Shown: positions 7,659-43,334 of the stretch, one piece after another
Layout of the letters: each line of letters opens with the position of its first letter
How positions within the stretch are numbered: position 1 is the first letter of the stretch
DNA from: a virus
Taxonomy: Duplodnaviria > Caudoviricetes
Virus record (IMG/VR): IMGVR_UViG_3300011441_000224
Location: 1-43,334 of that record
Direction: 5' to 3' (one strand)
DNA: 43,334 nt
Position numbers and translations under genes: made by a program
Notes under the pieces: model-generated
Seen by the model: the letters and a program-made list of their open reading frames with translations, nothing else
Told to the model about the DNA's origin: nothing
The model's database searches: none

Positions 7659-7688
7659 TTGCGTATAATGTGCATATAATCAAGCCAA

Positions 7689-20038: not shown

Positions 20039-20251
20039 ATGGACAAAGTTTTTGCTAGCATAGTCGACAAGAGAGAGGCGCCAAGTCGCGACGATATCGC
20101 AAGACTGCTGACGTCTATCGCTCCTCCTGGCAAGAAGCAAGGTCTGAAGCGTCAGGTGGTTGAGCGGCTATACGAGGCTACCTCAGCTCGCTTATCGAGC
20201 CCACAGGGGCATAGTGCATTGGATAACCTAACCTCGTATGAGGCCTATTAA
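20039..20251 (+). CDS. Hypothetical protein
   Basis: In the operon. Confidence 0.5.
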   Translation: MDKVFASIVDKREAPSRDDIARLLTSIAPPGKKQGLKRQVVERLYEATSARLSSPQGHSALDNLTSYEAY

Positions 20252-20892: not shown

Positions 20893-20894
20893 CC

Positions 20895-23800: not shown

Positions 23801-24473
23801 GAAGGGTGTGGAGGTGGATGAGCTAGGATCGCTCCTGGTCGCCTTCGGGACTGCTACTGCCAAGGGTATGACTGACCTACCGTTCGTCCAGGGTGTATCT
23901 AGCGTGATCGAGCTACTAGGCGATCCCAGCGAGTTCAACGCTAACCGGGTGGTCGGTGGAGTGCTGACTGGCCTTATCCCGAATATCGGCCGGGACATTG
24001 CTTCAGCTGGAGACGAGTTTGCACGTGACGCCCGGTCGATAGGGGACCAGGTCAAACAGATGATTCCTGGGCTGCGGAACAAGACCAGTGAGCGTATGGA
24101 TATATTCGGCGAGCCACAACGACAGTCTGGTGGGCCGGCTGAGCGTGGGTTCTTGAAGATAACCTCGACTGACAAATCAGATAGGCTTACTCAAGCCCTA
24201 GAGGACGCTGCGTTCTTCCCGTCACCACCGAGCGAGAAGCAGCGGAACGTCACCCTAACAGCCGCGGAGTACAAGCGGTTCCGTGTTGAGTCGGGCAAGC
24301 GGTTCAGGAGCAAGCTGGAGGCTGCTATCGGCGACGCGGCTTACCGAGACTTGCCGCGCGATCGCAAGTCGAAGACCCTGGAAGCTGCATTGTCGGATGC
24401 ACGAAGTGATATTTTGGATGACATACTTGGAGAGCCCGCTAAGTCCAGTAGCCCGAGAGTAAAGCGGTACTAA
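20895..24473 (+). CDS. Large polyvalent DNA-ejection-type protein with an internal RelA/SpoT-like domain (~21618-22070)
   Basis: 1192 aa; KGINRVTEK, DAVRGTI, GYGDVKVNV, GEIILATPEM and GHKLYKQAR motifs; C-terminal LVPFISTPTNI and YAIKIGNRWVAY motifs. Confidence 0.75.
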   Translation: MGRLYNTGSPAPTRGGGGRIQWGSAPASASAAPAPTPLDAKLVSSFRSLPADNRRSVLRRLQTKSDADSVRKFKLLAPLVDKDVPNEPDYKDKSLSSKLYRAGQAVKGFARDQFTSLLGEGTAGEEVDRSSGKPVITRAGRAETQADVALRGIQGRTLMAGGAGKTFVSTAGKNAAVGAGYNTAESLKSSNTQDKTVGQVAKGTAKSAAEGAAFGGAAGIVGKGLSVAVNARKIVGKAAKTDSQFQASLQQAARDLGTTVQASPAKGINRVTEKGIKDYKGDLSEVKDAVRGTIVLKDPSKVDEVVTALRQRYNVTRVKNTLDRPGYGDVKVNVALSKGQTGEIILATPEMIAAKASGGHKLYKQARTMKEGPERSRLEQELTKIYEEASSSTQRRLNKGLDSNLESQTGAPVSTKSLNVIVDTDITTPKHTVTQKGPIGQDIGQDVLPNESRFDPSSRLKQYDESLQATMKNIEQDPAYLERLKEQGGGRVISNRETYAKARELGPMDEAEIIGAKAGDKIDAVNVVRAKATVDTAAKEFTDFWESKEWTPAQLQERIERLSKLEAGYHVISAEPGRATQIQNSFIDEAFRRAQKLKELLEGTKGPKADELIEKELADFDKAVAKAGGVYEPGTLQRVRSWIEEYATAAKLTSPLTHAINLGSNLLTAPVRVAENIVSTGIGTIQGKTTLAQLKHVFGTYQGFKAATKQLVADLKQAVDVKAPDLKPDGTKMENAAAIPGKAGKAIRTPFNLLQASDNFMKALLRDSELHMRGYEKAFQEGFKGRELARRVAELVDNPTPELIARAEKVAKEFTYTSDPGPITKKIASLVNTIPGGRLLVPFISTPTNIAKFQIQRHPLGLFTPTNINALRKGTNLDRREAVARLTVGTGLAVGGLMAAFGAKENITGPAPTNKGEKDVFYSSGKKPYAIKIGNRWVAYNRFSPIGSYLTQAVGLRDKMIENERKSIKKGVEVDELGSLLVAFGTATAKGMTDLPFVQGVSSVIELLGDPSEFNANRVVGGVLTGLIPNIGRDIASAGDEFARDARSIGDQVKQMIPGLRNKTSERMDIFGEPQRQSGGPAERGFLKITSTDKSDRLTQALEDAAFFPSPPSEKQRNVTLTAAEYKRFRVESGKRFRSKLEAAIGDAAYRDLPRDRKSKTLEAALSDARSDILDDILGEPAKSSSPRVKRY

Positions 24474-26710: not shown

Positions 26711-27400
26711 GTGCGCTTGCCTTTTTCCGGCAGCTATAGGCTAACTCAAGGGTTCGGAGAGAATCCAGCTATCTATGCTCAGTTTGGGTTGAAGGGTCAT
26801 AACGGGATCGACTGGGGTTTGCCCAGCGGGACGCCGGTTCTAGCGATGGAGTCTGGCACAGCTCGCGTCCTAGAGGACCTTGCGGGTTACGGGCACTACA
26901 TTGAAGTCACCGGCAGATACAAGATCGCCTACGCCCATCTCCAAAAAGCCCTCATCTTTAGTGGACCTGTTAACGAGGGGCAAGCCATCGGTATCTCGGA
27001 CAACTCTGGGTTTTCCACAGCCCCGCATCTTCACATCACCGTCAAACCAATCCCGCAGAATAACAATAACGGCTACTTCGGGGCGACTGACCCGATGCCA
27101 TTAATAACAGGAGACAATATGGCAGGCTTCAACAAAATCAACGCCCAGGCCGCAGTCAAGAACACTTATAACTGGATAGCTGGTATCGAGCCAACCCCTG
27201 AACAGCTTGAATACTGGAGCAACCAGCTGGTCAAAGACGCGAACATCATGGACGACTTCGAGTACCAGGTTCGCATTGGCCCTGGTATGGAACACCAGCG
27301 TAGAGCCCAAAATTACGACGCTGATGTAGCGGCAGCTAAGGCCCAGGGCGACCCCAAAGCGTCCGCAGTGGTGGCGGCTATCAAGGAAGCGATCAAATGA
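26711..27400 (+). CDS. Endolysin, peptidase M23 family
   Basis: HNGID, YAHL and GFSTAPHLH zinc motifs. Confidence 0.9.
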   Translation: MRLPFSGSYRLTQGFGENPAIYAQFGLKGHNGIDWGLPSGTPVLAMESGTARVLEDLAGYGHYIEVTGRYKIAYAHLQKALIFSGPVNEGQAIGISDNSGFSTAPHLHITVKPIPQNNNNGYFGATDPMPLITGDNMAGFNKINAQAAVKNTYNWIAGIEPTPEQLEYWSNQLVKDANIMDDFEYQVRIGPGMEHQRRAQNYDADVAAAKAQGDPKASAVVAAIKEAIK

Positions 27401-27705
27401 AAGACAAGATTACCAAGCTGGCCGACCCCGTGTTCCGGGCTAACCCCAGGTGGATTATCGAGCAGCTCAGGGGCGAAAACGCCCTCTTACGCGATCTATT
27501 ATCCAACCTACAAGTCCAGCTAAGAGAACTAAAAGGCAAACGAAACCCAACCCAACCAGGGTCCATAACAGTGTCAGTTCCGCAATGGCTTTTGAATGGT
27601 CCACGACCTTCCTCTACTTATTCAAACGATACGGCAAACCGCTGTCCCTGCCTAGATTCGCTTTCTTGTTCACATCATTTAACCAAAGGAAGGAGGTTGA
27701 TATGA
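27397..27705 (+). CDS. Hypothetical protein
   Basis: ATGA overlaps at both ends. Confidence 0.45.
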   Translation: MKDKITKLADPVFRANPRWIIEQLRGENALLRDLLSNLQVQLRELKGKRNPTQPGSITVSVPQWLLNGPRPSSTYSNDTANRCPCLDSLSCSHHLTKGRRLI

Positions 27706-27938
27706 GTGCCTTAACCAAGGGCATTTTCTGGGCAGATACGGCCGAACGCGCGGTAAAGACCGCAGCACAAACAGCTGTGGCGCTTTTGACCGTAGACGGC
27801 GTTAACCTGATCCAAATGGATTGGAGAGGTTTCTTAGCAGCCGTTGGCCTGGCCACGCTGTTATCAGTCCTGACCAGCATCTCGTCTGCCGGCAGCGGTA
27901 ACTCCGCTTCGCTAGTGGTCGACGCTAAAGCAAAATAG
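27702..27938 (+). CDS. Holin, r1t family
   Basis: FWADTAERAVKTAAQTAVA...DW...ATLLSVLTSI; AGGAGG RBS. Confidence 0.88.
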   Translation: MSALTKGIFWADTAERAVKTAAQTAVALLTVDGVNLIQMDWRGFLAAVGLATLLSVLTSISSAGSGNSASLVVDAKAK

Positions 27939-29632: not shown

Positions 29633-29667
29633 GTGAGTTATCCTTTTATGCGATTATTATACTATGA

Positions 29668-29780: not shown

Positions 29781-29831
29781 CGCCTCCGAGCATCAACACC
29801 TAAGCACGGCTAGTTCCTCGACCCTCGGGGC

Positions 29832-30146
29832 ATGAAGATAGATGGGATGGTGGCCATTGGCCGCAGCATCGGCTCTGAGCCGATGAACGAGGCTACCTGG
29901 CGTAGCTTCATCGAAGACACCCACGTCAAGGTTCAAGAAGCCGGCGGCGCCATCTACGGCGTCGCTTACGGTGAGGGTGTCTGGGAAGGCCGGGAAGCGA
30001 CGGCCTTCGTTTTGTTTGGTGGGGCTGAGGCGAAAGAGCTGGAAGCAGCTCTATCCTTCCTGGCCCTGACCTACTCTCAGAGAGCCATCGCGATCCTGGT
30101 TGGCGAGAACCGCCTGGTTGAGCCGAGGCTGTATGTCACTAACTGA
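29832..30146 (+). CDS. Hypothetical protein (ferredoxin-like fold?)
   Basis: ORF with GEGVWEG.E and YSQRAIA motifs. Confidence 0.6.
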   Translation: MKIDGMVAIGRSIGSEPMNEATWRSFIEDTHVKVQEAGGAIYGVAYGEGVWEGREATAFVLFGGAEAKELEAALSFLALTYSQRAIAILVGENRLVEPRLYVTN

Positions 30147-30324
30147 GTGGATCGAGCGGGAGCTGGCCAAAGCTCCCGCTCTTTCGTCTGCTCGTCTTGT
30201 AAAGCTGCGGGCTATTCTAACCAGCGTACAACGACCGAGTTCGGATCAAATTCCCGCTTCCATTGAGGGGCCGGACGAATCCTCACCTGGCAAAGAGTCG
30301 CGATCGTGGCCCGTTGCAGCATGA
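30133..30324 (+). CDS. Putative recombination directionality factor (phiRv1 Rv1584c-like)
   Basis: WIERELAKAPALSSARLVKLRAIL resembles recalled YLIRTLAAAPPLTDEQRTRLAELL; convergent with the integrase. Confidence 0.5.
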   Translation: MSLTEWIERELAKAPALSSARLVKLRAILTSVQRPSSDQIPASIEGPDESSPGKESRSWPVAA

Positions 30325-31534
30325 GCGAGGCGTCGTCGAAGGCCTGAACCGGATCGGGAGCTGAAAACACACTTGGGCGAGAGGACCTCGTTAGCAGGGC
30401 TTGGATCTCTTCGATCTGAGTCCTGATTTTTTGTGAGGCTATAGCGTACCGTTGACCGTCGATCAGGCCGGCGTCGTAGTCCTCAGCTATTAACTGAAGT
30501 CTCTCCTGGAGCGCTTTCAGGACGTCCAGCGCTTCGGACGACTCAGTGTCGGCCTGGAGTAGGTCTCGGAGATCCGGCATAGCCAGACGGCCTCTAATGA
30601 GCTTCAAAACGAGGTTGTCGATATGGGTTTGGGACCGGGTGAAGTGAAGTCGGCACTGGTACCGCTTACCCGTCCAAGCTCTCACGATGGCGTCACAAAC
30701 GTCACAGACGTACAGGCCCGAGCCGAGATGCTTCCGGTCTGTCCCCCGCTGAGTTCTCCGCAGCGGATCGCTCAACCGGGCTTGTACGAGGTCGAAAGTG
30801 GTTTCATCCACCAGGGGAGTCCACCCGCCAGACTTACCCGTGACCTGGCCTTGGTAGATGGCTCGGCCGGCATACCTGGGGTTTACCAGTATCCCGCGGA
30901 CGGTAGAGGAGTTCCATCTGTCGCCGTGGCGGGGAGGGATCACCCCGTTCAACCAAGTGGCAACGCCCTTAAGCGAGTCACCCTCGCTAAACCTAGCGAA
31001 TATCTGGCTGACAACTTGGGCCTCTTCTTCTACCAGCTCACCTTTAGCGGTGTAACCGGTAAGCCTTACCCCCAAAGGCGGGCGGCCCAATTGCGAGCGC
31101 TGAAGTGCAGCCCGGCGTTGGCGGTCGGCTTTTACTTGGATCTCATGAGCCGCTACTGATCCAAGAATGCTGGCGGTCAAACGACCAGCCGCTGTGGAGA
31201 GATCCACCTCCGACCCGCGCACCAGGGCAACGATCAGGCCGCGCTCTTCGCCAACCTCCAGTAGCCGCAGGAGGTCCCGGTTATTGCGGCTCAGCCGGTC
31301 AAGCGACCAGGCCACCAGGACCCGCGCTCGCCCGGTCTGCACGTCGTCCATGACCGCCTCGAACCCTGGGCGCCGGACCTTGCCCGACCCTGAGAGATCG
31401 TTGTCCTGGTGGACAGCAACGACTGTCCAACCGCGCCGAGCCGCTAGTGCCAGGCAGTCAGCCTCCTGGCGGGCTACGGCCTCGCCCTCGCCGGTGAAGT
31501 CACGCGACTGCCGGACGTACACCACACACTCCAT
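30212..31534 (-). CDS. Large serine integrase (phiRv1/actinobacterial type)
   Basis: YVRQS catalytic Ser, DRLSR, recombinase domain (ILVNPRYAG), Zn ribbon (CDVC). Start set at ATG 31534, 6 nt after a TATGCT -10 (leaderless). Confidence 0.93.
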   Translation of the reverse strand: MECVVYVRQSRDFTGEGEAVARQEADCLALAARRGWTVVAVHQDNDLSGSGKVRRPGFEAVMDDVQTGRARVLVAWSLDRLSRNNRDLLRLLEVGEERGLIVALVRGSEVDLSTAAGRLTASILGSVAAHEIQVKADRQRRAALQRSQLGRPPLGVRLTGYTAKGELVEEEAQVVSQIFARFSEGDSLKGVATWLNGVIPPRHGDRWNSSTVRGILVNPRYAGRAIYQGQVTGKSGGWTPLVDETTFDLVQARLSDPLRRTQRGTDRKHLGSGLYVCDVCDAIVRAWTGKRYQCRLHFTRSQTHIDNLVLKLIRGRLAMPDLRDLLQADTESSEALDVLKALQERLQLIAEDYDAGLIDGQRYAIASQKIRTQIEEIQALLTRSSRPSVFSAPDPVQAFDDASLMLQRATIATLCQVRIRPAPQWKREFDPNSVVVRWLE

Positions 31535-31766
31535 GTATCGAGCATACATGATCTGTTGGTTGATCTCCGAACTCCGTCGAATTCCGTTTCGCAATATAAG
31601 CCAAACTACGTTTAAGTGGACAAACCCCCTACAAGATTGCCACGATCGACCTGCTCACAAGCAGCAAATCAGCAAATTCCGACATTTTGGTTTTGGCTAC
31701 TCGCCTTCCTACCCTTGCAGGTTACCCAGACGGCCTGGGAGAAGGAGGTCAGAAGGAGGACCCAAG

Positions 31767-32216
31767 ATGACGCCAGAGGAGCGTGACACAGAGTACCTCA
31801 CGGACGAACTGAAGAGACTGGTTGGAACAGGGGCGAGCCTAGAGTGGCTACCCCTCATGCCAACCCTCCGGGGCCTAGCCCAGATCGACGAAGAAGCAGA
31901 CATGAAGGTTATCGGGAAGACAATGTTGAGCTTCCTGGTAGAAGGTATCGAGTCGCTACATGGCTCGTATGAGTTCCGGGGTAAGTGGTACCCCGCCACA
32001 ACGATGAACACTGTATATCGCGTCCTCCTGGCGATTGGACAGTACTCAAACACGAACGCACCGGGTAGAAGGTCCCGGGCGCTCATGCTTCTTAATCTAG
32101 GGAAAAGCACCAACACCTGGCGTTGTGATGACCGCCTAGAGCGGGACTTCCTGGAGATCCTGGCAAGTCATATTGTTAATAGTGCATCCTCTAGTTCAGA
32201 GGATGTCGCTGCTTAG
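31767..32216 (+). CDS. Hypothetical protein divergent from the integrase (possible regulator)
   Basis: AAGGAGG RBS before ATG 31767. Confidence 0.6.
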   Translation: MTPEERDTEYLTDELKRLVGTGASLEWLPLMPTLRGLAQIDEEADMKVIGKTMLSFLVEGIESLHGSYEFRGKWYPATTMNTVYRVLLAIGQYSNTNAPGRRSRALMLLNLGKSTNTWRCDDRLERDFLEILASHIVNSASSSSEDVAA

Positions 32217-32685
32217 GGAAGTTCAAGACAGCAAACTCACCGAATAGAACTGAGGCTGCCGTATCGTAAACACGAGCGGCAGCCTTGGACTTTGTGAACC
32301 TGCCTAAGTATATGGTTTCCCCGTCCTTCTTGAGCATGGCTACCCACTTGCCTTGGTGCAGATGTACGCCCTTGTAACCGCTGGAATTGGTATCTGGCTT
32401 CAGGAAGTTCGCTCCATTTTGGGCTCTTGTACATATCCTCAGATTATTTCTCTGGTTGTTGAGTTTGTTGTGGTCGATGTGGTCAACCTCTAAACCTTCG
32501 GGGTTCCCGCATATTAGCCGTGCCATGAGGACGATTCTTCTCTTCTTACCAATGCCTACGAATGTGGCGGCATAACCGCGCCCGGCGAGGACCCATTGGA
32601 ACCCAGCCAAGTATTCGAAGTCTTCATCATCAACTAACGCGTACTTGCCTTCACCATTCTTGCCAGTTAGTGCTATTCTTTTCAT
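32191..32685 (-). CDS. HNH-AP2 domain endonuclease
   Basis: VDHIDHNKLNNQRNNLRICT plus SSGYKGV...YLGRF...AARVYD.AA..LFGEFA.LNFP. Confidence 0.9.
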   Translation of the reverse strand: MKRIALTGKNGEGKYALVDDEDFEYLAGFQWVLAGRGYAATFVGIGKKRRIVLMARLICGNPEGLEVDHIDHNKLNNQRNNLRICTRAQNGANFLKPDTNSSGYKGVHLHQGKWVAMLKKDGETIYLGRFTKSKAAARVYDTAASVLFGEFAVLNFPKQRHPLN

Positions 32686-32843
32686 AGGGTGCCGCCTCCA
32701 GTGCGGCATCTTAATTGTTTCCCTAATTATAGTCTCTGCACCTCTGCAAAGCTACACGCTGACACCAAAGCATCGGCTAAAAAGCAAGCGTCCCCGTGGT
32801 CTCCTGTTGTTGCCGAGAAAGTACTCCGACAAGGGAGGCAAAG

Positions 32844-33173
32844 ATGGACGACGAACAGAGCCTAAGTCAGTGGATCAACAGCGGGCCCAGCCCCCACTAC
32901 GAGGGTGGCAGCCAAGTAGCCCGCAGGTCTGCACCCGTTCCTTCAAGTTGGAGCGGTCAGCGCGTAGCCAAAGCGGATGCTTACGCGGTCGAAGAACGGA
33001 TGTACAACGTCGGTCGTCTGGCAATCCGTGGAGTCGAGAGCATCGTGGACATCCACGAGTGCATCAACTCTCTCGGGAACATTCACCCCATCTTGGCGGG
33101 TGAGCTCAGGCCGGTGGAAGAAACCGTCGCTTTGTGCGTGCCCGAACTCATTATCAGATACATGGGGCGATGA
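32844..33173 (+). CDS. Hypothetical protein, first gene of the transfer operon
   Basis: GGGAGG RBS. Confidence 0.65.
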   Translation: MDDEQSLSQWINSGPSPHYEGGSQVARRSAPVPSSWSGQRVAKADAYAVEERMYNVGRLAIRGVESIVDIHECINSLGNIHPILAGELRPVEETVALCVPELIIRYMGR

Positions 33174-33364
33174 TGCACGGCGTCGTGGTGTTTTCCATGG
33201 TGTGTTTCTACCTCGCTGTATTGATGATTATTGTGACCGCGCTGGCTTGTGAGCGATACTACAACCTCAAGAAAAGGATGGAAGGCGACCTCCACATGGT
33301 TGACCATCTGTACGACAGAGCCCGCAGGGAGATTGATGGGAGGGTCGACCAGTGGCGAAGATAA
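33170..33364 (+). CDS. Small membrane protein
   Basis: ATGA overlap; N-terminal TM. Confidence 0.55.
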   Translation: MMHGVVVFSMVCFYLAVLMIIVTALACERYYNLKKRMEGDLHMVDHLYDRARREIDGRVDQWRR

Positions 33365-33510
33365 AAGCTTACCTTATCTACGCGGTCATAATTGTTGTCG
33401 CTCTCAGGATCATCCTGTGGGCCGTTGAACCGATGGTTCCGTATCTGGTCGCCCTACTCATCTTAGTAGGGATCTTAGGGCTTGCTGTTCGTGGTAAAAG
33501 AAAGTTATAG
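33352..33510 (+). CDS. Small two-TM membrane protein (52 aa)
   Basis: Read by hand: MAKIKAYLIYAVIIVVALRIILWAVEPMVPYLVALLILVGILGLAVRGKRKL; GGGAGG RBS. Confidence 0.6.
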   Translation: MAKIKAYLIYAVIIVVALRIILWAVEPMVPYLVALLILVGILGLAVRGKRKL

Positions 33511-33517
33511 GTAAGAC

Positions 33518-35662
33518 ATGGACTACATGCTGACATTGTGGCTGGTCCTAGGCGCTGGACTCCTTGGAGTGCTGGTCCTCCTCATAGTGTGGGGTGTCAG
33601 GGCGTTCTTCCAAAACCGGGCCGACCACATGCGAAGAACTTACGAGCTCGGTTTCCCTAGAGGGATGACCGAAGCTCACGTCCTAGATTTTGTTAGGTCA
33701 GCCATTGGAGAGATCCCCAGACCCAAACTTCTCCAGCCCGTTTACCCGATGGTGTTTGAAAAATACGCCGACCACGAAGGGAAACATTACTACCTACACA
33801 TGCCTGGTCACGTTCGTACCAAAGTAGACAAGCTTTTAGACAAGAAAATTGAGGGTATCACGATTGAACAGGTTAGAGACGCAGACGACCTGGTGATAAA
33901 TGCGGAATGGGAATATACAACTGAGCTTGATCTAAAGGGTGACGGCCCTTTGAGGATTCTGAGTGCTCAGGGTGTGGCTTCGAGTCTGGATGCGAACTTC
34001 GACTCCCTGGACGAGGGTGAAGCCCTCCTAATGCAGTGGGTGGTGTTCCCTGACATCCCTCGAAAACCCGAGGAAGGTTATAAGGACAAGGTTAAAGACC
34101 ACACCATGAACGCTCAACTCAGGCTCGCCTCCAAGGGTGAGGATGCGAAGGAAATGATAATGAACTTGGGCGGGACGTTTAGCGGGGTCAGTTCGGATAA
34201 GGCAGTTTTCTTAAAACGAATCATGTTTGACGTTCCAGGGAGGATCGCAAGACGCAGTAGCCAGTGGGGGTTCCCGGTTTATCTAAACGCTCCCGAGTTT
34301 ACTGCCTTGATGGGCTGGCCTTTGGACGGAAGGACGGGGAATATCGTGGCGCGGTCCCTACCAGCAACGGCTCAACACAAGACCGGGGCCATCGTTCTAG
34401 GAGCTTCCAATCATCCTAAAACCAGGGGGCAACTTATCACCATGCCCCATGAATCTGGGGATACGCACTTTGCCATCATGGGCGGATCGGGTACAGGCAA
34501 GTCGGAGTTTGCCGGCAATCTGTTTATCCAGAAGATATCCGATCCTGAGACTGCGGGTTTTTTGCTTGAACCAGCAGGGGACTTGGCTTGGAAAGTACTC
34601 AACTCAATTCCGGCTCACAGAGCAAGAGACGTAATCTTTTTTGATCCGCTTGACCGGCAGTGGCCCATAGGTCTCAATCCTTTACGGGGGAGTGATCCTG
34701 AGAGGGTCACAGGTCATATGGTCGGGGTGTTTAAACACCGGTTTGCTGAGACCTGGAGCGCTCACATGCAGAGGGTGTTTACAGCAGCTATCAGCACTTC
34801 GACCCTGCTTGATTTAACACTTTACGGGACGATGCAATTACTGGTGAACAAATCATTTCGCCAGTCCCAACTACGCAAGTTGAAGCGAACACAGCACCCT
34901 GAACTGTTTCAAGAGTGGGACTGGATGGAAGACCAGCGTACTGGAGCTGTGGACTCATCTGTGGCAAGACTCCAAACCCTACTAGGTCCGACGTCTTCGA
35001 TGACCCGAAACATCCTCTCTCAGAAGAAGGGGTTGGATTTTGACTGGATTATCCGTGAGCACAAAATCCTGATAGCTCCACTTCCCGCAGGGCAGATGGG
35101 TTCGATCAACGCTTCAGTTATCGGAGAAATCATCCGAGAGGGAGCCTGGAACGCAGCCATACGCCAACGCCCGGATCAAGCTGAACGCAGCCTTGTCTTA
35201 ATGGACGAGTTTCAGCACTTCGCGGAATTCTCTAGTTCAAAGTCAGATCCGTTTGCCGAGGCTAGGAAATACAAGCAGCAGTACATCATCGCCAACCAGT
35301 TTATAAAACAACTTGGAGATCAGGCTCCGACCATCTTTAACAACGTCGCTACTCAGATGGTGTTTCGGATGGGTGACGAAGACGCTAAAAAGCTCAAGGA
35401 CAGATACGCGCCTCTGTCAGACGAGGACATCTTAAACCTCCCCAAATACCACGCAGCTATTCGGATGATGACTGAGGCGGGCATGGCCCCAGTGGTGACT
35501 CTTAAGACTCCGCCACCAGCCCAACGTACAGGCTATGCCAAGTGGATCATCGAGAATACCCGCGCCAACTTTGCCCGGCCCGTGAGTGAAGTCGTAGCGG
35601 AGGTCATGGAGCACCACAAGGCCGCAGAACCTAAACAGAAACCGGATATAGCATGGGAGTAG
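33518..35662 (+). CDS. Type IV coupling protein-like ATPase (VirD4/TraG/TrwB, HerA-FtsK superfamily)
   Basis: N-terminal TM; Walker A GGSGTGKS; Walker B LVLMDEFQHF; EARKY and ANQ motifs. Confidence 0.88.
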   Translation: MDYMLTLWLVLGAGLLGVLVLLIVWGVRAFFQNRADHMRRTYELGFPRGMTEAHVLDFVRSAIGEIPRPKLLQPVYPMVFEKYADHEGKHYYLHMPGHVRTKVDKLLDKKIEGITIEQVRDADDLVINAEWEYTTELDLKGDGPLRILSAQGVASSLDANFDSLDEGEALLMQWVVFPDIPRKPEEGYKDKVKDHTMNAQLRLASKGEDAKEMIMNLGGTFSGVSSDKAVFLKRIMFDVPGRIARRSSQWGFPVYLNAPEFTALMGWPLDGRTGNIVARSLPATAQHKTGAIVLGASNHPKTRGQLITMPHESGDTHFAIMGGSGTGKSEFAGNLFIQKISDPETAGFLLEPAGDLAWKVLNSIPAHRARDVIFFDPLDRQWPIGLNPLRGSDPERVTGHMVGVFKHRFAETWSAHMQRVFTAAISTSTLLDLTLYGTMQLLVNKSFRQSQLRKLKRTQHPELFQEWDWMEDQRTGAVDSSVARLQTLLGPTSSMTRNILSQKKGLDFDWIIREHKILIAPLPAGQMGSINASVIGEIIREGAWNAAIRQRPDQAERSLVLMDEFQHFAEFSSSKSDPFAEARKYKQQYIIANQFIKQLGDQAPTIFNNVATQMVFRMGDEDAKKLKDRYAPLSDEDILNLPKYHAAIRMMTEAGMAPVVTLKTPPPAQRTGYAKWIIENTRANFARPVSEVVAEVMEHHKAAEPKQKPDIAWE

Positions 35663-36369
35663 AGATGAACCTTGTAGGGATCAGGTGGGCGGCTCGTCTT
35701 ACCCTCGTGTGTGCTGTGGCGGCCTCTGTGAGTGCCAACATACTTCATGCCGAGCCTAACCCGATTAGTCAGGCTATCGCAGCCTGGCCGCCCCTGGCGC
35801 TTTTACTGACGATAGAGCTCGTATCACGAGTTCCGGTACACCGAAGATCACTGGCCGGGATGAGGATTGCGGCGACCACGATTATCTCAGGGATAGCGGC
35901 CTGGGTGTCTTACTGGCATATGGTGGGAGTGGCGGCAAAGTATGGTGAAACCGATGCGTCGCCTTATCTCTTGCCAATCAGCGTAGATGGCTTAATTATT
36001 GTGGCTTCTATCTGCCTTGTAGAATTAGCCCGGAAACCAGAAAGCCGCCCGGAGGCGGCTGACCTGTCTGGCTATCTTGCGAAGTCCACAGGTGGACTTA
36101 TCACCGAACAGGAACCTTTGAACGGGGGCACGCCCCCAAACTCTAGAGTGGCTTCATTATCTCACGAAGATCAACAAACGCCAAACCGCCAATCGGTACT
36201 AGTTGATCGCCCCACCAAGCAAGCAGCCGACGACCTGAAGCAGAAAGCGATCCAGTGGGTCAAGGACTACCAAGGTCCGAGAACACTGACAGGCCCGATG
36301 GTGGGGGCCGAGTTTGGTCGTGGACGTTCGTGGGGCCAAGAGATTTTGAGGAAGGCAGAGACGTTATGA
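35653..36369 (+). CDS. DUF2637 membrane protein with a C-terminal HTH-like tail
   Basis: AASVSANILHA...IAAWPPLALL...AAWVSYWHM...LLPISVDGL. Confidence 0.8.
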   Translation: MGVEMNLVGIRWAARLTLVCAVAASVSANILHAEPNPISQAIAAWPPLALLLTIELVSRVPVHRRSLAGMRIAATTIISGIAAWVSYWHMVGVAAKYGETDASPYLLPISVDGLIIVASICLVELARKPESRPEAADLSGYLAKSTGGLITEQEPLNGGTPPNSRVASLSHEDQQTPNRQSVLVDRPTKQAADDLKQKAIQWVKDYQGPRTLTGPMVGAEFGRGRSWGQEILRKAETL

Positions 36370-36475
36370 AAAGTCTTGTTTTCGCGCCTTGTGACCTCCT
36401 TGGTATCGACCAACCCTTACCAGGCTCGTTTAGGCAGCTCAGACACTGTGGCCGGCGCAAGACGGGATTGTTGTC

Positions 36476-37129
36476 ATGACCCAGCTGCTCAGACTCTCTC
36501 CCCGCTACGAGGCCATCCGTCGGACCGTCGAACGCTTCGGCCAAGTCACCAGCTCTCAAGTCCGCAGATTGCACTTCACCACAGGGACTCAGATGGGGCG
36601 TAAGAACCGTTGTCAGGTCTCACTACAGCGTTTGGTCGAGCTTGGCTTCCTAGACCACGCAGCACGTCCTAAGGGCGGCTGGCAGGGCGGGAGTGGAGAG
36701 TACGTGTTCATCATCCCCAGGCGTAGGAGACCAAGACCCGACTGGCATACGTTGGACATTGTCGAGTTGTACGTCCGGCTAACTGAAGTAACGACGCTAA
36801 TCTTTCGGCCCGAGTACTTTGCCCACCAAAGATACGGTGGGTTGTTGTTAAAGCCTGACGGGTACATCCAGATCGGTGTTAAGAAGTATTGGCTTGAAAT
36901 GGACGAGTCATCCTGGTACCCCGGTAAGCTTAACGAGAAGATGAAAAGTTATCTGTCGGTGTTTGAGAGGTGGGAGAGGGACAAGGATGGGAAGATTCCC
37001 GGTGTGTTGTGGGTGTGCCATGATGAGCCTCGCAAAGATGAAATCCAGTCAGTTATACACAAGACAAGTGAGCCTGATCTGTTCCGGGTTGTGCTGTTCG
37101 AGGACGCGGTTAAGTTCATGGTAGGGTGA
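36476..37129 (+). CDS. Replication-relaxation family protein (Replic_Relax, MOBC-like relaxase)
   Basis: N-terminal wHTH (VTSSQVRRLHF...LQRLVELGFL), HTLDIVELY, PDG...LEMD...K. Confidence 0.85.
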   Translation: MTQLLRLSPRYEAIRRTVERFGQVTSSQVRRLHFTTGTQMGRKNRCQVSLQRLVELGFLDHAARPKGGWQGGSGEYVFIIPRRRRPRPDWHTLDIVELYVRLTEVTTLIFRPEYFAHQRYGGLLLKPDGYIQIGVKKYWLEMDESSWYPGKLNEKMKSYLSVFERWERDKDGKIPGVLWVCHDEPRKDEIQSVIHKTSEPDLFRVVLFEDAVKFMVG

Positions 37130-37132
37130 GCT

Positions 37133-37315
37133 GTGAAATATTCGTATGAAGTCAGGGTTGGGGATAACCACCACCAGGGTAACTTCGAGTCAGACCTCCG
37201 CCTCGGTAACGACGATGACCATGACGAGCTGTATCAACAGGCCGCAGAACTAGCTAGGGTCCACGGTGACTTTGATAACGACAGTCTCAGGGTGAGGTTG
37301 AGATACCCACAATAA
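37133..37315 (+). CDS. Hypothetical protein
   Basis: Last ORF of the operon, followed by the CCCCGTG/CACGGGG hairpin. Confidence 0.5.
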   Translation: MKYSYEVRVGDNHHQGNFESDLRLGNDDDHDELYQQAAELARVHGDFDNDSLRVRLRYPQ

Positions 37316-37528
37316 AAACCCCGTGGTGTTGTTCACGGGGCTAACAACTTGTGAGGCCGGGACAAAGTACTAGTACATAGGTACCTAGTCCTATATTACA
37401 CTACGTTTGAGGAAGTAAAACGCAGCAGGGAATAGTAGAAAGTGCAGCGCAAGCACCCAAAGCTACCGAGGCTCACACATTGCGCGGGCCCAAGCGAATA
37501 TCGGTCAGCTATCCACTTCCTCAAGGAC

Positions 37529-37579
37529 TTATCCACAACCAAAAAAGCGCTTGACCCGCAAAGGGTTCGGCGCTTTAAT
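37529..37579 (+). promoter_or_regulatory. Perfect DnaA box adjacent to a sigma70 promoter
   Basis: TTATCCACA 37529-37537; TTGACC 37551-56, 17 nt, TTTAAT 37574-79. Confidence 0.6.
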
Positions 37580-37586
37580 GGAGTAT

Positions 37587-37898
37587 ATGAATACAACTAA
37601 TCACACTCTAGATGAAAAGCGGCCGCCTGTAAAGCAGGTCGGCTATTTTGTTGACAAAATCGACCCGAACCAAATAGACCGAATCTGCGACCTATACTTG
37701 GAGATTTACGGCAGCGAACCTGGCCGAAAAGGGCTGGATAAGATCGGAGGGCTAAGTGGGTTTGATGCCCAAGTCAAGATCGAAACCCTAGAAATGATGC
37801 TGCGTATACAGACGGAAGATCCCACCATCCCTAAGGGAAATAATGGTTTAAAGAGCCAGTGTAAGAAGAGGGTGTTAAAGAAATACGGTCTGAGATAG
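37587..37898 (+). CDS. Hypothetical protein
   Basis: ATG just after the promoter. Confidence 0.55.
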   Translation: MNTTNHTLDEKRPPVKQVGYFVDKIDPNQIDRICDLYLEIYGSEPGRKGLDKIGGLSGFDAQVKIETLEMMLRIQTEDPTIPKGNNGLKSQCKKRVLKKYGLR

Positions 37899-38141
37899 TT
37901 TGCTGTTTGGCGAGGGGCCGAACGGTTCCTCGTTAGGCCACAAGCCTATAAATGAATACGACGCTTAACACTGGGATCACTTACTAACGTACCAGACACG
38001 TTTACGCCCGTCTGGTGGGCTAGGGACTACGGCTCCACAACTCGACCCTCACCCTTACAAGTCTGTCTTGGTTCGGGGATGGTGATTAGCATTAAGGCCC
38101 CCACCCGAAAAGCCGAAGGCTTTGAGGGGGCAGGACAGTCT

Positions 38142-38417
38142 ATGGAATCTTTATGGAAACAACCTCATAAGAAGCTCTCCAAAGCCCAAGAGTGGATCAA
38201 GTTTCGAGTTGCCTACTTGTCCAAGCACGTCAAAGAAAATGGCTGGTACGAGTGCATGAACTGTCACAGGTGGATCAAATACCCAGAGGTAGACCATGTT
38301 CAAAGGAGGGGAAGTCATGCGGAGCTGGTGTTTGACGAATCAAACTTAGCTATCCTCTGCAATGAGGCCCCAAACTACTGCCATGCGCGTAAAGACAGCG
38401 GCATGGTAATAAAATAG
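38142..38417 (+). CDS. Small HNH nuclease (NinG-like)
   Basis: CMNC...EVDHV...NLAILC...CH. Confidence 0.75.
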   Translation: MESLWKQPHKKLSKAQEWIKFRVAYLSKHVKENGWYECMNCHRWIKYPEVDHVQRRGSHAELVFDESNLAILCNEAPNYCHARKDSGMVIK

Positions 38418-38483
38418 CCCCCGAACCTAGCGCAAGGGATTGCATTTAGTCCGGGGAGCTCCATCCATAATAACACATTGCTA

Positions 38484-38511
38484 TTGACATGCTGAAACAT
38501 AAGCATATAAT
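38484..38511 (+). promoter_or_regulatory. Consensus sigma70 promoter
   Basis: TTGACA, 16 nt, TATAAT. Confidence 0.8.
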
Positions 38512-38540
38512 TGATAGTAAGATAAGCAAGGGAAAATCTA

Positions 38541-38705
38541 ATGACTCGTCATATTAAACCAACTTACGTCCGCCGGCCCATACAAGATCTTCAGGTCAAC
38601 CGCAGGGAGTCCGTTCTAGTCTGGGTTGTAATTGGGGTAGTCGTTGCTCTAGCCCTATGGTTCGGGTTGTTCCGTCTTGAAGGCAACTTACCGGGGGAAC
38701 TCTAA
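38541..38705 (+). CDS. Small membrane protein (54 aa)
   Basis: Read by hand; one TM; TAATG-coupled. Confidence 0.55.
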   Translation: MTRHIKPTYVRRPIQDLQVNRRESVLVWVVIGVVVALALWFGLFRLEGNLPGEL

Positions 38706-38980
38706 TGGAGCCAACTATCAACTTACTGGATGACGCCTTAGGCGCTCCACGTTCAATCCAAACTCAATGCCCATACTGCCGAGATTGGAAAGAAGTCACG
38801 GGGTTTCACGACTGCCATGCAGCCCAACAGGCCAAAGCTCATATCGACGATGTTATCGCAAGCATCAAACGCAACCAGGATGAATTCATCCGCGGTGGCC
38901 GGGAGATCCTCTCTACCCCCGAAGAAGATGAGAGGCGTAAGTACAAGCAAATAAGATTAAGCAGGACATACATGCAATGA
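38705..38980 (+). CDS. Hypothetical Zn-binding protein
   Basis: CPYC...HDC. Confidence 0.55.
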   Translation: MEPTINLLDDALGAPRSIQTQCPYCRDWKEVTGFHDCHAAQQAKAHIDDVIASIKRNQDEFIRGGREILSTPEEDERRKYKQIRLSRTYMQ

Positions 38981-39453
38981 GTTACAAGATCAAGAACATC
39001 GGCCCCGACAAAGAGATCACCACTAACAACGGAACCTTTAAGGTTTACTCCCTCCAGTTTGACGGCGATGAGTCATGGGTCGAGTTAATGCAAAAGCCGA
39101 CCACTCCGGCACCGACTGTTGGTCAAGAGTTAGAGGGCACAATCGAGACCACTCAGTACGGCAAGCGCTTCAAGCGCGTACAAGCCGCTGGAAGCTTCCA
39201 GGGCGGCCGGACCAACGATCCTGAAACAAGGGGCTCCATCGAGCGCCAGAGCGCTCTAAAAGCCGCTGTAGACACCGTACAGAATCACTACGTCACCACA
39301 GGCGACAAGCCGGGGACTCTACCTGAGTACCGGGTTGAGGTTCTAATCACGGCCAAAGAGTTTGCAGGCTTCTTGGCTAACGCCAACCCTGGTACAACGA
39401 TCAAAGCGGATGACAACCAACCGCCGGCTGAGAACTACAATGAGCCGGCCTGA
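38977..39453 (+). CDS. Putative ssDNA-binding or recombination protein
   Basis: OB-like N-terminus, SIERQSALKAAV helix, acidic tail. Confidence 0.45.
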   Translation: MSYKIKNIGPDKEITTNNGTFKVYSLQFDGDESWVELMQKPTTPAPTVGQELEGTIETTQYGKRFKRVQAAGSFQGGRTNDPETRGSIERQSALKAAVDTVQNHYVTTGDKPGTLPEYRVEVLITAKEFAGFLANANPGTTIKADDNQPPAENYNEPA

Positions 39454-39865
39454 TATCAGCGAAGTAGTAGCAGCCGTTCGCAAATATAACGAACAGTTTG
39501 CGGATGGGACCATTCGATTGGCAGACCTTGACCAGCTGTCTAATGTGGCGACGCGACTAGGTGCCTACAAAGTTTACTTGGGTGAGTACCTGGCTGAGCT
39601 GGAACGGGATGCGGATTTGGCTGAAGCTCATCGTGAGCAGGTCCGGGAACGGGCCTATAGGGATGCTCGGGAAGGCGGGAAGACCCAAGCTGACTCGGAC
39701 AACATCAAGCGGCTTGAGGGCGATCTAGCAACAGCTGAATGGATCGAGGCTAAGTACCAGTTCAAGACCGTGGCCAATCTCTGGCGGGATTCCGACCGGC
39801 TAATTGACACGTTGCGGAGCCGACTGAGTTATAAGAAGACTGAGATGCGGGACTCGAACCAATGA
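39440..39865 (+). CDS. Coiled-coil protein (UvsY-like?)
   Basis: Helical; ends IDTLRSRLSYKKTEM. Confidence 0.5.
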   Translation: MSRPDISEVVAAVRKYNEQFADGTIRLADLDQLSNVATRLGAYKVYLGEYLAELERDADLAEAHREQVRERAYRDAREGGKTQADSDNIKRLEGDLATAEWIEAKYQFKTVANLWRDSDRLIDTLRSRLSYKKTEMRDSNQ

Positions 39866-39979
39866 GACTTTACTGCGCCCTATGCAGAATCCAATTAATC
39901 GGCAACCTATTGCTCCACGTAGCAAGACGCCATCCCGACGCATATAGACTAATGAAAAGTAATAAACAGAGGTGAAAAG

Positions 39980-40297
39980 ATGGATCAGATGACTTTAGAA
40001 CTAGTGGAGGTGACGGAAGAGGCGATCGAAAGGGCCAGAGCACACGCTCACGCTGCCTGGTTACTAGAAGCTGAGTTCGTTATTAAAATGCTCGCCGCTA
40101 CTGGCCGGGCATTTACGACAGACGACGCTTGGTTCCGGCTAGATAAGAGCGGCCACACTACTCACGAGCCGAGGGCTTTGGGTGCGGTGATGCGAGACTT
40201 TGTAAGAGGTGGGCAGATCGTCCACACCGGGGAGTACTGGCCATCTGAGCGACGCGAATGCCATCGTCGGCCCGTGGCTGTTTGGATAGGGCGATGA
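39980..40297 (+). CDS. Hypothetical wHTH-like phage protein
   Basis: GAGGTG RBS; FTTDDAW...EPRALGAVM...CHRRPVAVW. Confidence 0.65.
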   Translation: MDQMTLELVEVTEEAIERARAHAHAAWLLEAEFVIKMLAATGRAFTTDDAWFRLDKSGHTTHEPRALGAVMRDFVRGGQIVHTGEYWPSERRECHRRPVAVWIGR

Positions 40298-40457
40298 TGA
40301 ACGTCATCACCGCGGTACTGCTGACGCTAATCGTGATCCCGACCTTCGACATTAAGTTAGGTGGCCTTCAGACCGTAGTGACTTGCGTTAGTGTCGCGTT
40401 TGTGGTATCTGTCTTAGAAAAGCATAGTGGTAATGATAAATAAAGGGAGAAGGTGAG

Positions 40458-40682
40458 ATGGGTGGGAGCGTTGAAGGAGCTAGAATCGCAGAGCAGACTA
40501 TGATCTCAGAGATGGGCGAGGAGAATTACCGAGCGTGGAGAAAAGAAATAGGGCGCAAAGGTAGACTAGCCGGGGTCGCCAGCGGGGGATCTAAAAGAGG
40601 TGGGTTTGCTGCAGACCCGGAGCTTGCTAAAGAAGCCGGCCGTATTGGGGGCCGCGTAAGCAAGCGGAGGAAGATGACGTGA
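40458..40682 (+). CDS. KGG-repeat / general-stress-like small basic protein
   Basis: EIGRKG...GGFAADPELAKEAGRIGGRVSKR. Confidence 0.75.
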   Translation: MGGSVEGARIAEQTMISEMGEENYRAWRKEIGRKGRLAGVASGGSKRGGFAADPELAKEAGRIGGRVSKRRKMT

Positions 40683-40867
40683 CCCGGCTAAACCACATGG
40701 AGGACGTCGTGTACCGAGCTTCCACCGAGCCACAGGCGTTTTTCTGCCGGCTGGACATTGTCGAGAGCCCATGTTGCAAGGCACTCTCTGTTATTCAGAC
40801 GGGGCCACAGTTCAATCATCGCCTCAAGCCTATCCGGCGCTGTGTACGTTGTCGTAATCCGTTCTGA
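40679..40867 (+). CDS. Small Cys-rich protein
   Basis: SPCC...RCVRC; GTGA overlap. Confidence 0.5.
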   Translation: MTRLNHMEDVVYRASTEPQAFFCRLDIVESPCCKALSVIQTGPQFNHRLKPIRRCVRCRNPF

Positions 40868-40872
40868 GAAAT

Positions 40873-40904
40873 GAGCCCCGGCCAAAAGAATGACCGGGGC
40901 TTTT
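40873..40904. terminator. Terminator between convergent units
   Basis: AGCCCCGG...CCGGGGCT-TTT. Confidence 0.75.
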
Positions 40905-40907
40905 GTG

Positions 40908-41240
40908 TCAGGCCTGAGCCTGAGTTGCTTCAGCGGCCTCTATGGCGCGCTGATATGCGTTCATCACCTCTTGCGAGACGCGGCCTTTGACAGCCACAGT
41001 ATATCCGTGAGCCTGCGCCCACTGACGAATTGCCTCCCTTTCGGGATCGGGTCCGGTAGTTGGCTTTCGCTCTACCACCGTACCGGCTGCGAAGTACTTG
41101 TCGAGGTACTTCATTAGTTTGTCGAACTCTGGCTTAGCCAGGTCGATAGTGACAGCCTTGTCATTGACCACAATCTTGTAGGTCTCAGCACCGGCCTCAC
41201 CAGATAAATCACAGCGTACAAGGTACTCGCGCATTTGCAT
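40908..41240 (-). CDS. lsr2: Lsr2 family nucleoid protein / xenogeneic silencer
   Basis: CDLSG...IDL dimerisation domain; IRQWAQAHGYTVAVKGRV DNA-binding domain; GGAGGTG RBS. Confidence 0.88.
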   Translation of the reverse strand: MQMREYLVRCDLSGEAGAETYKIVVNDKAVTIDLAKPEFDKLMKYLDKYFAAGTVVERKPTTGPDPEREAIRQWAQAHGYTVAVKGRVSQEVMNAYQRAIEAAEATQAQA

Positions 41241-41587
41241 CACCTCCCGGCGTAGCGCGTATTCGTATATTGGATCATTAAATGCGTTGCCGTCAAATGG
41301 CACCAAAAACCGAACATCAATTTGTTAGAGTTGTTGCTAGGCTTTTACCGACCCACGTAAGGTATGGCCTTAAAAGTCAAGCACTTAGCCTCAGGTATAG
41401 AAAATGGGTCGCACATTAAAATAGTGTACGACCCATTGTGCGACAGCGGGCCGCCCACACGCTAAGTGCTTAATCGTACCCGGCTCTAGAAAGAGAAGGG
41501 GACCCCCGCGTGGAGGCGGTGACTGAGTGTAGCACAAAAAGTAGAGCCGTCCGCACCCCAGGGGACGACCCTACTTCTTCACACCCG

Positions 41588-41776
41588 TTAAATGCCTTCT
41601 ATATTCTTCCAGCGCTTCGACCACTTCCTATAAGACCTGGTGAACTCGCCGTACTCTCTGCCCTCGTGGATGATCCGTGCCCGCCTAACCAGCGACTCCC
41701 TGCCTGACAGGATTAGGTAAGCGGACACTTTGGCGTCTTCTAAAGTTTTATCTTTCAGGATCACTACCAACTTCAT
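41588..41776 (-). CDS. Hypothetical protein
   Basis: GAGAGG RBS. Confidence 0.5.
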   Translation of the reverse strand: MKLVVILKDKTLEDAKVSAYLILSGRESLVRRARIIHEGREYGEFTRSYRKWSKRWKNIEGI

Positions 41777-41915
41777 CGCCTCTCCAAACGCCTAGGATGG
41801 TGATTTCCGGCCTCGCTTTATCGCCGTGGTGGCAGGTGCCTTCCCTTTGACCCCAGAATTGCCCACTGAAGAATCCCATGAACAGGATGGCGGTCAAGAT
41901 GATCATTCCGGCCAT
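41748..41915 (-). CDS. Small protein with a hydrophobic N-terminus (55 aa)
   Basis: Read by hand: AGGAGAG RBS, MAGMIILTAILFMGFFSGQFW... Confidence 0.4.
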   Translation of the reverse strand: MAGMIILTAILFMGFFSGQFWGQREGTCHHGDKARPEITILGVWRGDEVGSDPER

Positions 41916-42197
41916 TCAACTCTCCTAATCGGGTTACAGCCGTCTCTACTTTGGCTGTGGTTTTCGAGATGCGCCCGGAGCTGAAGCTCCCAGTCGAGCT
42001 GCTCGACACCTTCGGGTGCTAACCAACGATGACTCGAATCTGAGTAATGCATGTCCTCGTCTCTGGGCGTTAGCCAGCTCATCTAGCCTCCTTAGATGCC
42101 CGGGGGCCGAGCCCACCAGCCCGACCCCCGGTTCCCCCAACCCCCGCCAGCAACGCTCGGAGCAGCTACAGACGGTCTGAGCAGGGGTCGAACCTAC

Positions 42198-42238
42198 CAT
42201 GGATAGCATGGAAAGCAAGGGTTCCATGCCAGGCATGT
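42198..42238. promoter_or_regulatory. Putative GntR operator array
   Basis: CA(T/A)G at 42198, 42207, 42216, 42225 and 42234 (exact 9-bp period). Confidence 0.55.
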
Positions 42239-42262
42239 CAGCCTCCGTGCGAACCTGCGTAA

Positions 42263-42490
42263 GTGACGCCCCTGTACCAAGTGGTCATACACGACATAGA
42301 GCGTCAGATCGCCGCAGGACTGCTTAAACCCGGCGACCGGATTGGCTCGACCAGGGAGCTGTGTGCGCACTACGAGGTGTCCAAGACGGTCATAGCCCAG
42401 GCACTCACCATCCTCAAGGCTCAGGGCGTGCTAGAAGGCGCTCAGGGGCGCGGCGTGTTCATAGTTGATAACTCTGGCGCTAACGGCTAA
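42263..42490 (+). CDS. GntR-family winged-helix regulator (DNA-binding domain only)
   Basis: PLYQVVIHDIERQIAAGLLKPGDRIGSTRELCAHYEVS...GRGVFI. Confidence 0.9.
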   Translation: MTPLYQVVIHDIERQIAAGLLKPGDRIGSTRELCAHYEVSKTVIAQALTILKAQGVLEGAQGRGVFIVDNSGANG

Positions 42491-42516
42491 CCTCCGCCTA
42501 ACCAAGGGAGAGTGTT

Positions 42517-42885
42517 ATGGCCAGAGTTACTCGGTACATAGATGACTACAGTCAGAAAGAGCTGACTGAGGATGACGGGCAGACGGTCCACATCCAGGTA
42601 GGGGAAGACCACTGGGAGATGGATATGGGGGCTGACAGCCTCGGGAAGTTGCTCAAGGTGATGCTGCCTTGGACCGATAAGGCGATCAGCGTGGACGCAC
42701 CCAGACTGGAGCCGCGTAGGGGGCGAGGACGGTCTTCTGGAGCTGTAACCCGCACCAAGCTACCCGGTAAGGGACCGGAGTTCCTCCAGGCCGTGAGGAC
42801 GTGGGCAAGGGCCAACGGGTATGAACTATCAGACCGAGGGCGTATCAAGGCTGAGATTATGGATGCTTTTGAGGCAGCCCACTGA
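42517..42885 (+). CDS. lsr2: Lsr2 family protein (second copy)
   Basis: YIDD...WEMDM; AVRTWARANGYELSDRGRIKAEIMDAFEAAH with the RGR AT-hook. Confidence 0.9.
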   Translation: MARVTRYIDDYSQKELTEDDGQTVHIQVGEDHWEMDMGADSLGKLLKVMLPWTDKAISVDAPRLEPRRGRGRSSGAVTRTKLPGKGPEFLQAVRTWARANGYELSDRGRIKAEIMDAFEAAH

Positions 42886-42888
42886 CGA

Positions 42889-43063: not shown

Positions 43064-43334
43064 TCAGTAGCTCCCGCTCCCGCTCCTGCTCCAGCTCCCG
43101 CTCCCGCTCCCGCTCCCGCTCCTGCTCCAGCTCCCGCTCCCGCTCCAGCTCCCGCTCCCGCTCCTGCTCCCGCTCCTGCTCCAGCTCCCGCTCCCGCTCC
43201 AGCTCCTGCTCCAGCTCCCGCTCCTGCTCCAGCTCCTGCTCCTGCTCCTGCTCCAGCTCCTGCTCCAGCTCCCGCTCCTGCTCCTGCTCCAGCTCCTGCT
43301 CCAGCTCCCGCTCCTGCTCCAGCCGTTTTCAAAG
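43064..43334 (-). CDS. C-terminal part of the (W/R/G)-Ser repeat protein
   Basis: About 42 NGGAGC hexamers ending ...GSY-TGA at 43064. Confidence 0.65.
   Translation of the reverse strand, partial: FENGWSRSGSWSRSWSRSRSGSWSRSWSRSRSRSWSRSGSWSRSWSGSGSWSRSGSRSGSGSWSGSGSWSRSGSGSGSGSWSRSGSGSY
43069..43323. repeat. Tandem hexamer repeat (GCTCCN)n
   Basis: Directly visible; only one position of the six varies. Confidence 0.95.

Follow-up and report, generated by a model that had tools for sequence, protein, structure and literature searches.

A temperate short-tailed phage genome with an actinobacterial integrase, a coupling protein, a putative relaxase and Lsr2: a possible hybrid of phage and mobilisable element

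We found in the virus record IMGVR_UViG_3300011441_000224, analysed in full (43,334 bp; hereafter the window), a phage genome that combines virion and lysis genes with an integration and mobilisation cassette, comprising a large serine integrase, a VirD4-type coupling protein (T4CP) and a putative relaxase, and with two Lsr2 genes. With moderate confidence, we read this genome as a hybrid of a temperate short-tailed phage and a mobilisable element, which would borrow a conjugation channel, integrate into actinobacterial chromosomes and be silenced by its own Lsr2. An earlier note on this DNA had proposed a mosaic of two phyla, in which actinobacterial modules are joined to a backbone from Saccharibacteria. 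The actinobacterial half of this proposal is borne out by prophages of relatives; the Saccharibacteria half is not, as no tie to Patescibacteria emerged. The gene families listed in that note were recovered, and the relaxase and the lack of a mating channel had been overlooked.

The window was annotated by Pfam and PHROG profile scans of its 81 open reading frames (ORFs). The integrase (30212..31534, minus strand; Pfam Resolvase and Recombinase) is 54-55% identical to proteins of Micromonospora and Actinoplanes, and all 14 organism-named proteins among its best 120 matches belong to Actinomycetia. A TANNNT hexamer lies 6 nt upstream of its ATG and no Shine-Dalgarno (SD) sequence is present, consistent with the leaderless start claimed earlier, from which the enzyme is probably translated. 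The T4CP (33518..35662, plus strand; Pfam TrwB_AAD_bind) has its nearest Atlas clusters mostly in Actinomycetota, with Patescibacteria clusters near too. Downstream lies a Replic_Relax protein (36476..37129, plus strand), absent from the earlier list of genes, identified by Pfam, in which a winged helix stands beside a restriction-endonuclease-like domain. This is the architecture of MOBC relaxases, by which the protein would be a putative MOBC-like relaxase. Its structure model has a pLDDT (predicted local distance difference test) of 91, and residues H91, D128, E141 and K155 are invariant across 33 sequences; fold matches are middling, with Z up to 8.1 for winged helix-turn-helix proteins, Z 7.6 for BstEII (root-mean-square deviation 3.5 over 125 aligned residues) and Z 7.6 for EcoO109I (2.9 over 103). 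No VirB family was found by Pfam among the window ORFs, and the VirB4-type ATPase family PF19044 occurs in none of 11 cassette genomes. Since a relaxase and a T4CP are thus present without a mating channel, the cassette would be a mobilisation unit that borrows a type IV secretion system (T4SS). Of the two Lsr2 copies (40908..41240, minus strand, Pfam Lsr2 and Lsr2_DNA-bd; 42517..42885, plus strand, Pfam), the second points the same way in taxonomy as the integrase, all five organism-named proteins among 63 Lsr2 matches being from Actinomycetia.

The rest of the genome is predicted to be that of a short-tailed temperate tailed phage, as judged from its terminase, portal, capsid, adaptor, ejection and lysis genes and the lack of a tape measure. 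All on the plus strand, these comprise terS, TerL and an SU10-type portal (5822..9557; Pfam/PHROG), the major capsid protein (10611..11459; PHROG 422), an SU10-type adaptor with a short-tail stabilisation protein (15925..18568; Pfam SU10_adaptor, PHROG 511), internal virion (ejection) proteins (20251..24473; PHROG 6651) and an M23 endolysin with an r1t holin (26711..27938; Pfam). Neither a tape measure nor a tail tube was found by Pfam or PHROG among the 81 ORFs, and no spanin or LysB family matched in the lysis region. Among relatives, designated by G numbers, the TerL is 74% identical to that of G001, the capsid 70-71% to those of G002-G004 and the tail 45% to that of G020.

A search for relatives sharing the mosaic, suggested in the earlier note as a check, returned the same combination in ten other genomes, and T4CP and Lsr2 occur jointly in 11 genomes, window included. 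Both genes are present in 2 of 14 viral records found through the capsid or TerL (25 metagenome loci, not whole, were left out of this count) and in three of 44 records found through the tail (42) or the relaxase (2); two of these three were reached via the relaxase, and the remaining 41 carry neither gene. In the relatives selected by capsid or tail, neither gene was seen without the other. A T4CP scan added 13 further records, five of them with Lsr2. The relaxase accompanies the cassette in 10 of the 11 genomes, the exception being 47% complete, as compared to 2 of 18 others. In G001, homologues of the first cassette protein (32%), the T4CP (30%) and the relaxase (36%) stand together with a KGG-type protein and two Lsr2 genes; the T4CP of G018 is closer to that of the window (44%). 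The integrases of the cassette genomes are of actinobacterial type, either serine or tyrosine, and those of G018, G019 and G027 are serine integrases 26-30% identical to the enzyme of the window.

This set of genes is found on different virion types: a short-tailed module in the window, G001, G014, G027 and G069, and a long-tailed one in G018, G019, G066 and G068, whose tape-measure-like genes were read by eye. In the better sampled capsid and tail trees (FastTree, tail-selected relatives) the cassette genomes are scattered, and the cassette appears to move between unrelated virion modules. An early tail tree of 20 capsid-chosen rows had joined the window, G001 and G014 at 100/100; a single cassette clade was rejected because this grouping vanished once tail-selected relatives were included. 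Six cassette genomes have a GC content of 53-58% and 19 cassette-less relatives one of 41-50%; G050 and G058, which carry part of the set, lie at 54-55%. Within the window no compositional seam separates cassette and virion genes: GC at third codon positions (GC3) is 0.56-0.71 in the cassette and 0.61-0.72 in the TerL, portal, capsid, tail and internal virion genes.

Integrated relatives identify the hosts of such elements. The proteins of G014 are named Mycobacteroides abscessus, and its capsid gene occurs on 10 contigs of up to 1.64 Mb; compared to the window, its capsid is 51%, tail 36%, portal 26%, T4CP 24%, relaxase 26% and Lsr2 36% identical. This prophage lies within a host tRNA-Leu(TAA), one half of which is found at each end together with a 12-nt core; it brings along a tRNA-Leu(TAA) of its own, and a FadD32-like gene adjoins it (loci L203 2337-2411 and L205 about 2627-2672; the integrase is about 9 kb away from the att end). 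The 12-nt core corresponds to attB-15 in the supplement of PMC10654092 (cluster HD, M. abscessus), and the arrangement fits the tRNA-dependent lysogeny described in the available portion of PMC10865867. The G014 integrase shares 42-44% identity with tyrosine integrases of actinophages, no Mycobacterium phage record matched its virion region, and its GC content is 55% as against 64-69% in the left host flank. G018 and G019 are prophages of Arthrobacter and Nakamurella, respectively, both with a serine integrase at the prophage end. With cassette prophages in three actinobacterial genera, the actinobacterial integration claimed in the earlier note is established for the relatives; by analogy, the lysogenic host of the window would be a bacterium of the Actinomycetia.

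On the hybrid reading, the MOBC-like relaxase would nick an origin of transfer on the phage circle, and the T4CP would pass the DNA strand on to a borrowed type IV secretion channel, supplied in trans. In the recipient, the circle would then be inserted into the chromosome by the actinobacterial integrase, and there phage Lsr2 could bind the low-GC genome, some 10 GC points below that of the host, and keep it silent, or could instead titrate the host Lsr2. Enrichment of Lsr2 in temperate actinophages of lower GC content is reported in the accessible part of PMC8612146. The particles could be made, and the channel lent, by a Saccharibacteria epibiont or by an actinobacterium that harbours a conjugative element; as a source of the channel, such an element would do just as well.

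Several observations weigh against this reading. The fold scores of the Replic_Relax protein are middling. Replication proteins go under the same Pfam family name, and no replication initiator is recognisable in the window, so that the protein may serve replication. In G014 and G027 the relaxase and T4CP genes stand far apart, G050 and G058 carry a relaxase-like gene without a T4CP match, and 8 of the 13 more distant T4CP records are without Lsr2. Many relative records are incomplete, and the host of the window is deduced from relatives at 24-51% identity.

A wider form of the hybrid reading, which we put forward tentatively as possible though less likely than not, involves two phyla: the virion would infect a Saccharibacteria epibiont, and the genome would be pumped into the actinobacterial host, integrate there and be silenced by Lsr2. 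The phage would supply the relaxase and coupling protein missing from the chromosomal T4SS of the epibiont, and the host chromosome would serve as a reservoir for return. According to the consulted sections of PMC12102498, Patescibacteria have a widespread chromosomal T4SS, mostly without a relaxase, and one tested strain cannot grow epibiotically without it; among their few relaxases MOBC is commonest (58 of 109), 39 lie near a T4CP gene, and T4CP homologues are very common. The two-phylum cycle is coherent in that the cassette supplies what this T4SS lacks. Moreover, it would explain a short-tailed M. abscessus prophage that has no cultured relatives and no LysB-like family among the 48 ORFs scanned, the latter being a hint only. 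Parasitism by Saccharibacteria on a host with mycolic acids is on record (PMC11880426), and phages touching both partners of a symbiosis have precedents in the available parts of PMC10746230 and PMC13578794.

The search for Saccharibacteria in the backbone itself gave little to sustain this cycle. The KGG-type protein, the SLT protein and the backbone had been ascribed to Saccharibacteria in the earlier note, a claim that was not confirmed, no backbone gene having received a Patescibacteria label. We had presumed the early, lysis and tail genes to resemble those of Saccharibacteria prophages, which no search here supports. A capsid scan of GTDB (a four-row alignment and two patterns, of low sensitivity) returned two distant Bacillota proteins alone (34% and 26%), none of the best 120 capsid homologues carries an organism name, cluster look-up and the Atlas gave no host name, and no link to the TM7 phage was found in the phage collection. 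WhiB in two cassette-less relatives, the DUF5753 and HTH_17/MerR-type regulators of G050 and a virion GC3 of up to 0.78 in G018 also count against a Saccharibacteria backbone.

The same observations favour another explanation, in which the window and its relatives are ordinary uncultured temperate actinophages that infect as particles, their T4CP and Replic_Relax genes being either cargo carried over from an integrative element or genes turned to use in replication. Relatives are prophages in three actinobacterial genera, the regulators of G043, G032 and G050 point to actinobacterial hosts beyond the cassette, GC3 is as high as 0.61-0.78 in virion genes of the relatives G014 and G018, and the GTDB scan, at its low sensitivity, was without a Patescibacteria match. 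We nevertheless consider this explanation rather unlikely, as it leaves the strict coupling of T4CP, Lsr2 and actinobacterial integrase unexplained. No cultured actinophage among 50,697 phage records has the same capsid or tail, though Mycobacterium and Arthrobacter are heavily sampled, and the lack of a LysB-like family among the 48 G014 ORFs scanned also speaks against it. The clustering check against cultured actinophages proposed in the earlier note came out accordingly: actinophages make up none of the 24 records matched by the capsid, neither of the two matched by the tail and none of the best 30 of 138 TerL matches. In these searches no virion gene proved to be shared with cultured actinophage clusters, the sole match being one of 22% to a Streptomyces minor-tail protein.

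It is very improbable that the window belongs to a Saccharibacteria phage that collects actinobacterial genes across the contact between the cells and never lives in an actinobacterium. A backbone unlike that of cultured phages and the abundance of T4CP homologues in Patescibacteria would suit such a phage, but prophages with the same cassette are cleanly and site-specifically integrated, with att halves, in actinobacterial isolates.

The genome appears to be intact in its assembly. The ends of the window overlap by 54 nt at 96% identity within a tandem repeat, indicating a circular genome; IMG/VR classifies the record as linear and 76% complete. Read evidence was taken from runs X1 and X2, and runs X3 and X4, with small shares, were left out. 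X1, which may be the source of the record, contains a single 43,084-nt unitig at 19.5x that covers window positions 23041-43040. In X2, 29 of 30 window bins have depth, 62 of 62 pieces are 99+% identical to the window, and one contig (29470-29854) bridges the junction near 29.7 kb. A chimera in which a phage was misassembled with a mobile element of actinobacteria, conceivable for a short-read metagenome contig labelled linear and named in the earlier note as a possible refutation, is ruled out for practical purposes by the X1 unitig, the identical sequence in X2 and the recurrence of the mosaic in ten other genomes, G001 with the same gene set among them.

Further features accompany the cassette. 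A gap (31535..31766) that would hold a divergent promoter and is a candidate attP separates the integrase from the cassette operon; the records of G018 and G019, both proviruses, have their ends between the integrase gene and that flank of the cassette which holds the T4CP, and no inverted repeat in the gap passed the filter. The first operon gene (31767..32216, plus strand) encodes a protein of no assigned function, whose homologue lies upstream of the G001 T4CP, and is followed by an inserted HNH homing endonuclease (32191..32709, minus strand; Pfam HNH_3). A DUF2637 membrane protein (35653..36369, plus strand; Pfam DUF2637) matches PHROG 733, which is labelled excisionase. The small ORF overlapping the 3' end of the integrase gene (30133..30324, plus strand, in ORF 30100-30324) had been called similar to a recombination directionality factor, a label that was not confirmed, as neither Pfam nor PHROG gave a match. 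No transfer RNA genes were found in the window.

A KGG-repeat protein (40458..40682, plus strand; Pfam KGG) in the early region has homologues (38-43%) in G001, G004, G018 and G019, and a GntR-family regulator (42263..42490, plus strand; Pfam GntR) precedes the second Lsr2 gene. These and the other named families, namely DUF2637, Lsr2, the r1t holin and SLT, were all present in Pfam as the earlier note had read them. Its SD-poor starts were likewise seen, with no SD before terS, portal and adaptor and a -10-like hexamer beside the start codon of the latter two. Its AT-rich TTGACA/TATAAT promoters fared worse: with up to 2 mismatches allowed, the window has 7 such sites, several of them intergenic, a count within the range of 10 Markov controls (2-7), and an excess of promoters was rejected.

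Three minus-strand genes span the join of the circle (42889-43334 and 1-469): a gene at 83-469, a tandem-repeat gene with a Ser-Arg-Ser-Trp-Gly frame (43065..43334 into 1-80) and a 57-aa ORF. A similar repeat gene in G001 adjoins the homologue of 83-469, both on the strand of the KGG gene, which suggests an inversion. The SLT ORF (window 1321-1620) ends at 1545, and an SLT-like C-terminal part continues, by eye, in another frame; either the gene is disrupted or the assembly is faulty here, and the read-based assembly check did not extend to this frame break. Two other genes are noteworthy for their repeats, a virion protein with 7 copies of a 42-nt unit (15104-15901) and, in the lysis region, a protein with collagen repeats (25469-25906).

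Among the relatives, G001 holds a defence island (L081 9098-14547) with an AbiTii-like gene, a DNA methylase-Mrr fusion and a Swt1-like HEPN gene beside its two Lsr2 genes. Genes for ArdC-like anti-restriction proteins, which are familiar from conjugative elements, are present in G014 (L204 329-1327) and G058 (L313 12507-13313), by Pfam ArdcN, and in G027 (L288 5999-6802) and G019 (L286 763-1626), by homology; no window ORF matched them. The provirus G050 (L289-L290) carries a related tail, a relaxase, a DUF5753 XRE protein, a HATPase, two HTH_17/MerR regulators and two ORFs that resemble divergent Lsr2 N-termini and have no Pfam match. The WhiB genes of the cassette-less G043 (L300 7581-7865) and G032 (L302 9177-9461) lie in genomes of 48% and 42% GC, respectively. 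A short tyrosine integrase, at most 33% identical to integrases of cultured phages, is common to G002, G022, G029, G031 and G055, and a gene of the CCA-adding/poly(A) polymerase family lies at the end of the capsid relative G002 (L092 716-1732). Finally, a capsid 70% identical to that of the window occurs on a 403-kb contig (P0313), probably in a prophage, the flanks of which would identify a host of cassette-less relatives.

Read cautiously, these genomes would represent hybrids of phage and mobilisable element that recur as a class in Actinomycetia. One member is a short-tailed prophage, unmatched among deposited Mycobacterium phages, in a mycobacterium of clinical importance. With three lysogens in culture, the entry route is directly testable. 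If the route through an epibiont were true, the phage would provide a substrate for the essential and unexplained T4SS of Patescibacteria, show that this system can carry DNA into the host and open a path of gene flow between bacteria of the candidate phyla radiation (CPR) and their hosts. It would also offer a culturable source of CPR phages, of which none has been isolated according to the available part of PMC13578794.

The literature searches made here returned no description of this phage cassette and no paper joining Saccharibacteria, phage and Lsr2. The terms 'podo' and 'Lsr2' are absent from the main text of PMC9934374 and PMC10654092 and from the six supplements of the latter, and PMC11659515 has no phage content. 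The uncultured podovirus MW202692 from Manatee Spring shares the virion gene order, with a capsid of 64% and a tail of 30% identity, but differs from the window in having no cassette and a GC content of 45%. Phages touching both symbiosis partners (PMC10746230, PMC13578794) share with the two-phylum cycle the idea of one phage for both partners; they rest on particle binding or spacer matches, and the available parts of these papers describe no conjugative cassette and no insertion of a backbone of this kind into an actinobacterial chromosome. G014, which interrupts tRNA-Leu(TAA) at a short core sequence and brings a copy of its own, resembles the phages of tRNA-dependent lysogeny (PMC10865867) and those of attB-15 (PMC10654092), whereas the window has a serine integrase and no tRNA.

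With the Lsr2-bearing actinophages (PMC8612146) and the CgpS/CGP3 silencing system, the window shares a phage-borne Lsr2 and a temperate genome poorer in GC than its host. The window group differs in having no capsid or tail in common with cultured actinophages and in carrying a T4CP and a putative relaxase; G014, moreover, brings a short-tailed architecture into a mycolic-acid host. We know of no short-tailed mycobacteriophages, nor did we find a passage stating their absence. The closest parallel may be the integrative mobilisable elements, which combine a MOBC relaxase with a T4CP. Like them, the window has a site-specific integrase, a putative relaxase and a coupling protein, no complete mating-pair-formation system and a presumed need for a T4SS in trans. 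In contrast to such elements, its unit is embedded in the complete genome of a tailed phage, goes together with Lsr2 and recurs on unrelated short- and long-tailed virion modules.

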